Assembly: GCF_003334315.1 (NCBI RefSeq)
Contig: NZ_QOWR01000055.1
Direction: 5' to 3' (one strand)
Length of the DNA: 30,752 nucleotides
Source of the DNA: Escherichia coli
Lineage (GTDB): Bacteria > Pseudomonadota > Gammaproteobacteria > Enterobacterales > Enterobacteriaceae
Each line of letters starts with the position of its first letter. The first letter of the stretch is position 1. The notes below the pieces were generated by a model, which worked only from the letters and a program-made list of their open reading frames with translations, ran no database searches and was not told where the DNA came from. Shown one piece after another: positions 9,390-9,548 of the stretch. The translations under genes and the position numbers were made by a program.

Positions 9390-9548
9390 TTAATCGCGGG
9401 TTTGCACCCAGAACGCGTGAATCAAACCGGGGATATACCCAAGCAGTGTCAACAGAATATTAATAATGAACGCCCAACCGAACCCTTTACCGAGCAGCAC
9501 GCCGAGCGGCGGCAGAATGATGGTGATGACGATTCTCCAGAAACCCAT
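9390..9548 (-). CDS. yqaE: Small Pmp3/UPF0057-family membrane protein YqaE (52 aa)
   Basis: Read manually on the minus strand: ATG at 9548, stop TAA at 9390..9392, translation MGFWRIVITIILPPLGVLLGKGFGWAFIINILLTLLGYIPGLIHAFWVQTRD. Missed by the ORF track (below 60 aa); the listed + strand ORF 9378..9563 is the shadow. Confidence 0.85.
   Translation of the reverse strand: MGFWRIVITIILPPLGVLLGKGFGWAFIINILLTLLGYIPGLIHAFWVQTRD

Follow-up and report, generated by a model that had tools for sequence, protein, structure and literature searches.

A 52-codon minus-strand open reading frame at 9390..9548 is the Escherichia coli core gene yqaE, encoding a Pmp3-family membrane protein

The minus-strand open reading frame (ORF) at 9390..9548 of the window, the whole stretch of 30,752 nt of Escherichia coli DNA analysed here, is the E. 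coli core gene yqaE (b2666), a member of the Pmp3/RCI2/UPF0057 family under strong purifying selection. Its product is a two-helix inner-membrane proteolipid of the Pmp3/UPF0057 family, an assignment based on the translation, the Pfam and RefSeq matches, the ratio of nonsynonymous to synonymous variation (pN/pS), an AlphaFold2 model and the GRAVY score. Taken together, the gene call, the family, the regulation and a Pmp3-like membrane role very probably give the right explanation of the locus as a whole, and no evidence against the gene call was found in the analysis. What a sequence-only reading of this stretch had observed is confirmed and its interpretation supported, although the finding is an ordinary one: yqaE is already known, being annotated and partly characterised, Pfam has a curated entry for its family, and CpxR and CyaR have been published as its regulators. 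Annotation of the gene goes back to the first K-12 genome, and for genome biology the result adds nothing new.

The gene consists of 52 codons and a stop codon, running on the minus strand from an ATG at 9548..9546 to a TAA at 9392..9390, exactly as the sequence-only reading had placed it. The frame reads ATG GGT TTC ... GAT TAA and is translated as MGFWRIVITIILPPLGVLLGKGFGWAFIINILLTLLGYIPGLIHAFWVQTRD. This protein is 100% identical to that of E. coli K-12 yqaE (b2666, NP_417152.1), the gene name that had been proposed, and RefSeq names the product "Pmp3 family protein YqaE" (NP_417152.1) or "YqaE/Pmp3 family membrane protein" (WP_000508177.1). The identity extends beyond the coding sequence, as the 461 nt from 9300 to 9760, with the leader and intergenic regions included, are identical to those of strain MG1655 (NC_000913.3); single-nucleotide differences from K-12 occur elsewhere in the window. 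The window and K-12 therefore carry the same gene with no difference, and also share its neighbours kbp, ygaV, ygaP and stpA. Of 5426 complete E. coli genomes, 5418 carry this 9300..9760 locus, in every case on the chromosome and in many at 100% identity.

A length of 52 codons is not in itself beyond chance, and yqaE is judged real because of its match to the Pfam Pmp3 family, its codon-position substitution pattern and its ribosome binding site (RBS), rather than its length. The substitution pattern was taken from 46 Enterobacterales sequences, obtained in a genome scan with one genome per species, which with the window sequence make a set of 47 orthologs. All 46 begin with ATG and align without gaps over the 52 codons, two Klebsiella orthologs continuing past codon 52. 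Variable columns in the yqaE frame number 26, 6 and 49 of 52 at codon positions 1, 2 and 3, respectively, and the pooled pN/pS in this frame is 0.118. Purifying selection, third-position variability and a properly spaced RBS, the marks of a coding gene, are thus all present.

On the plus strand, a 61-amino acid (aa) ORF with an ATG start at 9378..9563 lies antisense to yqaE and in phase with it. It could be supposed that this ORF is the real gene and the minus-strand frame its shadow, as the plus-strand ORF is the longer of the two, has an ATG start and is the one displayed by an ORF list at a 60-aa cut-off. The substitution pattern refutes this reading, the probability of which is practically nil: pN/pS in the exact antisense frame of the 61-aa ORF is 1.41, and this frame is broken by at least one stop codon in 25 of the 47 orthologs. 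Its peptide is hydrophilic and of low complexity, gave no match in Pfam and NCBIfam searches, and is included in no reference annotation. What keeps the ORF open in E. coli is the absence from yqaE of TTA, CTA and TCA codons, which read as stop codons on the opposite strand. The substitution pattern, the stop codons and the lack of a family match together indicate that the minus strand codes and that the plus-strand ORF is a shadow and not a gene, as the sequence-only reading had held.

The same reading had pointed out that yqaE is missing from the ORF track, which is correct, since the default cut-off of 60 aa lists the 61-aa ORF and omits the 52-aa gene. Its description of the gene as "invisible" holds for a length-thresholded ORF list but not for annotation, as yqaE is present in every reference annotation. 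The further claim that small proteins in the window must be read manually has yqaE as a case in its favour, but generalises from that single case; yqaE is the only coding sequence shorter than 60 aa in the MG1655 annotation of the stretch, counting annotated coding sequences through gshA. The methodological point is that a 60-aa cut-off conceals a real, universally conserved gene while displaying its non-coding antisense shadow, and that codon-position variability and pN/pS tell the two apart unambiguously.

Comparison of YqaE with the family profile PF01679 (Pmp3, "Proteolipid membrane potential modulator") gives E = 2.8e-19 and 69.3 bits, bearing out the proposed family. The alignment is full-length, pairing YqaE residues 3-48 with positions 2-47 of the 49 in the model. 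The sequence-only reading had named a lack of Pmp3 similarity and of an RBS as grounds for abandoning the call; the locus has both the Pfam match and a GGGAG 5 nt before the ATG. Relatives of YqaE were found by genome scan in Gammaproteobacteria, Alphaproteobacteria, Desulfuromonadaceae, Cyanobacteria, Nitrospirae, Rubrobacter (Actinobacteria), Armatimonadetes and Rhodothermia, and the Pmp3 family is among the most widely conserved of small membrane proteins. Aligning 22 diverse sequences, drawn from six or more phyla, leaves 18 positions invariant (R5, P13, P14, G16, V17, G22, F27, N30, I31, L33, T34, L36, G37, Y38, P40, G41, H44 and A45). YqaE carries the full set of Pmp3 motifs, with an arginine near the N-terminus, PP in helix 1, and GY-x-PG and HA in helix 2. 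A dedicated model for YqaE was not found in an NCBIfam scan, which returned only a spurious sub-threshold match to MscL (E = 0.12, against a curated cut-off of 225 bits). A search of the PHROGs collection matched phrog_38199 ("membrane associated protein", in the moron/auxiliary category) at E = 8.2e-09, so that Pmp3-like proteins are carried by some phages too.

YqaE is very hydrophobic (GRAVY score 1.22), with two hydrophobic segments at approximately residues 3-20 and 25-48 separated by a GKGFG turn. No more than five of its residues are charged or ionisable (R5, K21, H44, R51 and D52). The AlphaFold2 model, built with the family alignment, is a confident helical hairpin (pLDDT 82) with helices at residues 2-21, 26-37 and 39-51; residue 38, adjacent to the conserved Pro40-Gly41, interrupts the second hairpin arm (26-51). 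A length of some 50-60 residues, two hydrophobic helices and a short turn are the features of the tail-less Pmp3 subtype, all of which YqaE displays.

The gene order in the window is glaH-lhgD-gabDTP-csiR(glaR)-kbp-yqaE-ygaV-ygaP-stpA-alaE ... proVWX ... emrAB-luxS-micA-gshA. Several features outside the yqaE region were recorded in passing. The ygaY frame at 20932..22116 (plus strand) is an intact 394-aa ORF in the window and an annotated pseudogene in MG1655, so that the window does not derive from K-12 despite its identical yqaE region. The gap between proX and ygaY contains two tandem matches to the Rfam family naRNA4 (CssrE, REP-derived) at 20650..20827 (plus strand), the second of which only reaches the gathering threshold. 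A tRNA-Arg(ACG) gene lies at 30407..30483 (minus strand) and a second tRNA at 30685..30752 (minus strand) is cut by the window end; both presumably belong to the argQ/Z/Y/V-serV tRNA cluster.

The gene immediately downstream of yqaE is kbp (ygaU; 8857..9306, minus strand), which encodes a K+-binding protein and lies 83 nt away on the same strand. The intergenic region contains a GC-rich hairpin with an 8-bp stem (9355..9374, minus strand), which begins 16 nt downstream of the yqaE stop codon and has no U-tract; at -18.2 kcal/mol it is unusually stable (z = -4.0, with 0 of 200 shuffles as stable). The hairpin was not called as an intrinsic terminator, and it is likely a 3′-end or stabiliser element. 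Beyond it, a CTACACT at 9346..9340 (minus strand) resembles a sigma-S -10 element that would serve kbp.

This arrangement allows for yqaE being a leader peptide or upstream ORF that regulates kbp, with a peptide functionless in itself, given that kbp follows so closely on the same strand and that read-through is plausible at an intergenic hairpin without a U-tract. The peptide sequence, however, is conserved across phyla, yqaE persists without kbp and in genera where its neighbours are unrelated, and the intergenic CTACACT resembles a sigma-S -10 for kbp itself, all of which make a leader role extremely unlikely. Between yqaE and csiR, kbp is absent in E. albertii, C. youngae and Citrobacter sp. 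R56, where the synteny is otherwise kept, indicating that kbp was gained or lost independently of yqaE. Synteny of kbp and ygaV with yqaE is confined to Escherichia, Salmonella and Citrobacter, and operon linkage of yqaE and kbp was accordingly judged non-essential. The retention of yqaE without kbp, together with this narrow synteny, identifies yqaE as an autonomous unit and not a kbp leader peptide.

Upstream of the gene, a CpxR box, GTAAATGAGAGTAAA (9646..9660, minus strand), starts 112 nt before the yqaE ATG and is the only perfect match to GTAAA-N5-GTAAA in the 30.7-kb window. A tandem GTAAA-N5-GTAAA upstream of the promoter is the hallmark of the CpxR regulon, and yqaE displays it. A perfect box is located approximately 90-118 nt upstream of the yqaE ATG in 31 of 47 Enterobacterales loci, including those of Enterobacter, Kosakonia, Phytobacter, Pluralibacter and Superficieibacter, in which the flanking genes differ. 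When 32 loci are anchored on the box and compared at fixed, ungapped offsets downstream, three further elements emerge: TGGC at +16 to +19 from the box (25-30 of 32 loci per position), a conserved TAxAxT hexamer at +29 to +34, and CTAnGCTTA at +37 to +45 (27-30 of 32 loci). The conservation of the box and promoter elements at a fixed spacing across genera is a mildly new comparative point.

These elements suggest two placements of the promoter. A candidate core promoter at 9603..9631 (minus strand) comprises CTGGCA (9631..9626), a 17-nt spacer and TACGCT (9608..9603), and the alternative candidate -10 element is TAAAAT (9617..9612, minus strand). Both hexamers are conserved at fixed offsets from the CpxR box in the 32 loci. 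The centre of the box would fall near -57 with TACGCT as the -10 element and near -48 with TAAAAT. In the TACGCT candidate, CTACGCTTAA resembles a sigma-S-type -10, which hints at dual control by CpxR and RpoS. A scan of 8800..9800 for consensus sigma-70 promoters gave no match, and the yqaE promoter is evidently weak and activator-dependent. In this respect yqaE resembles the Cpx regulon members cpxP, spy and yebE, which likewise have a GTAAA-N5-GTAAA box upstream of a weak promoter.

Published experiments point to the same regulator. In a massively parallel reporter study, gentamicin and copper conditions revealed a footprint of CpxR, acting as activator, at yqaEp (bioRxiv 10.1101/2025.05.13.653802), and yqaE is induced together with cpxP and spy both by TisB expression and by LolCDE inhibition, with CpxR dependence of yqaE reported (PMC11575346, PMC5105897). 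Separately, GTGGAATATAATTTGCT at 10212..10228 (minus strand), inside ygaP, is an exact match to an intragenic antisense sigma-54 site; this site, IA21, identified by ChIP-seq, faces yqaE, which is named as its downstream gene at a distance of 653 (PMC4591121).

The Shine-Dalgarno (SD) sequence GGGAG (9554..9558, minus strand) has its counterpart in the other genomes, a GGAG-type purine-rich core being found at the same spacing in the 32 loci bearing a CpxR box and an SD-like purine run preceding the yqaE ATG in the remaining 15. The same region is the predicted pairing site of the small RNA (sRNA) CyaR (9537..9560, minus strand; RNAduplex), which brackets the start codon. In the predicted duplex, CyaR nt 46-52 form 7 bp with UAGGGAG (9560..9554) over the SD sequence, CyaR nt 35-43 form 9 bp with GGUUUCUGG (9545..9537) over codons 2-4, and the AUG sits in an 8-nt internal loop between the two halves. 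Using the CyaR sequence from NC_000913.3 and pairing its single-stranded region (nt 28-56) with yqaE from -35 to +25, the best seed-restricted duplex has an energy of -21.1 kcal/mol, a value equalled by 2.1% of 1000 dinucleotide shuffles and by 3 of 28 other start regions in the window. This is only modestly above chance because the CyaR seed resembles an anti-SD sequence. A duplex of whole CyaR with the whole leader, at -30 kcal/mol, is matched by 35% of shuffles and was set aside as meaningless.

The predicted pairing, modest by itself, is consistent with published experiments without amounting to proof of them. yqaE co-purifies 70-fold with MS2-tagged CyaR (PMC5861431, which cites De Lay 2009 (De Lay & Gottesman) as the original report of CyaR acting on yqaE), sponging of CyaR by ArcZ raises the level of yqaE mRNA (PMC7213987), and an Hfq-bound "yqaE RBS" fragment accumulates in the absence of PNPase (PMC7145675). 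As in the other CyaR targets ompX, nadE, luxS and yobF, the anti-SD-like seed of CyaR would occlude the RBS; yqaE differs from them in that its predicted pairing is split between the SD sequence and codons 2-4 around an AUG loop. The classical target luxS is itself in the window at 26841..27356 (minus strand), approximately 17 kb from yqaE, and the gene for the sRNA MicA lies at 27425..27496 on the opposite, plus strand (Rfam, 83.9 bits), some 70 nt beyond the luxS start.

An ACA triplet directly 5′ of the yqaE ATG (9550..9552, minus strand) is a candidate MazF cleavage site and fits the reported cut of yqaE mRNA by MazF 4 nt upstream of the start codon (PMC5001579). Further upstream, a hairpin of GAGAU-AAA-AUCUC followed by UUUUU (9582..9599, minus strand) appears in the centroid fold, and its sequence is kept in many, though not all, genera. 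The hairpin may serve as a module that binds Hfq, or it may be where the "yqaE RBS fragment" of pnp mutants comes from. The 79-nt leader as a whole has no global structure and its fold is not unusually stable (z = 0.09).

The regulation and the family together suggest the following course of events. According to the literature, phosphorylated CpxR activates yqaE transcription in response to envelope stress, and the cAMP-CRP-dependent sRNA CyaR, with Hfq, blocks initiation of yqaE translation and destabilises the mRNA. When the envelope or the ionic balance is under stress, YqaE would be inserted into the inner membrane where, like yeast Pmp3p, it may dampen the membrane potential and the influx of monovalent cations, acting probably by means of interactions with lipids or partner proteins and not as an enzyme. 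We know of no Pmp3 protein for which a biochemical activity has been established. That YqaE modulates membrane potential and salt tolerance is inferred from its family and from work summarised in PMC7835403: as reported there, E. coli lacking YqaE is sensitive to low and high NaCl, a Pmp3 homolog from a dinoflagellate rescues the low-salt sensitivity (Kwok et al. 2020), and deletion of pmp3 in yeast hyperpolarises the plasma membrane (Navarre & Goffeau 2000). Deletion of yqaE made no significant difference to survival after expression of the TisB toxin (PMC11575346).

YqaE could also be viewed as a type I toxin-like peptide restrained by CyaR, with a role in membrane depolarisation and dormancy: it is a small, hydrophobic membrane peptide, an Hfq-dependent sRNA blocks the start of its translation, and it is induced with envelope-stress genes on TisB expression. 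Type I toxins are taxonomically narrow, each with a dedicated nearby antitoxin RNA. YqaE shows neither the narrow range nor a dedicated adjacent antisense or antitoxin RNA: its family spans many bacterial phyla, as found in the genome scan, and eukaryotes, as known from the literature, while CyaR is encoded in trans approximately 630 kb away and has many targets. A search of the yqaE locus against Rfam found no sRNA, and YqaE had no match in the PADLOC defence library. Loss of yqaE, moreover, is reported in the work summarised in PMC7835403 to give salt sensitivity and not tolerance. The cross-phylum range, the lack of a dedicated adjacent RNA and the lack of a PADLOC match contradict a toxin function, which is very unlikely.

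A structural relative was sought among proteins in the PDB. A phmmer search with YqaE gave a weak match (E = 1.3e-3) to 7ueb_F, "PscF | Ric1 protein", and a profile of the YqaE family matches PscF over its full length at E = 3e-07. PscF (Ric1, Q8KG87; PDB 7UEB chain F, 8GWA) is itself a member of the Pfam Pmp3 family (E = 4.7e-12) and represents the only solved Pmp3-family structure found in the analysis. A Foldseek search of the PDB with the AlphaFold2 model of YqaE returned nothing better than E = 3.8 and did not recover PscF; it is uninformative here, a helical hairpin of 52 residues being below the size that a fold search needs, and the link between YqaE and PscF is consequently one of sequence profiles only. 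Cryo-EM of the Chlorobaculum tepidum reaction centre shows PscF as a peripheral subunit present in a single copy, with four short bilayer-buried helices, that sandwiches one bacteriochlorophyll and an MGDG lipid against PscA (PMC9529944). The term Pmp3 is absent from that structure paper (PMC9529944) and from a 2026 simulation study, and the connection is a mildly new comparative point that may help work on the Pmp3 mechanism.

The PscF structure raises the question of whether YqaE could serve some larger complex of the inner membrane as a docked accessory subunit, bridging lipids or cofactors. The Pmp3 membership of PscF, its match to the YqaE-family profile, and its holding of a pigment and a lipid against PscA in the solved complex would all be in keeping with such a role. 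On the other hand, YqaE has no known partner, photosystems are absent from E. coli, several of the YqaE-clade invariants are missing in PscF, and the cross-kingdom complementation summarised in PMC7835403 argues for a partner-independent or lipid-level action. An accessory role is therefore considered rather unlikely, and it is equally doubtful that YqaE, and bacterial Pmp3 proteins generally, are anything other than autonomous modulators of membrane potential. Were this the case, the salt and potential phenotypes would be indirect results of a mis-assembled transporter or respiratory complex, and PscF would offer a structural template, as yet unexploited, to a family that has awaited a mechanism since 2000.

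Set against known systems, YqaE shares with PscF of C. tepidum its membership of the Pmp3 family, an end-to-end alignment and the R5, PP and (I/V)PG motifs, but PscF lacks the YqaE-clade invariants G16, N30, Y38 and H44 and, unlike YqaE, is a subunit of a photosynthetic supercomplex with four short helices beside a pigment and a lipid. Yeast Pmp3p (SNA1) and plant RCI2/LTI6 have in common with YqaE the PF01679/UPF0057 family, the size and the two-helix, tail-less architecture. All three are stress-regulated and their loss affects NaCl tolerance, according to work that PMC7835403 cites from others. As described in the same source, the sensitivity of the E. coli yqaE mutant to both low and high NaCl is a difference from the yeast and plant homologs, and yqaE expression drops in 200 mM KCl whereas that of yeast PMP3 rises. 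The ties of eukaryotic Pmp3 proteins to endocytosis and trafficking have no bacterial counterpart, and the control of yqaE by CpxR and CyaR is, in turn, specific to enterobacteria when compared with yeast Pmp3p and plant RCI2.
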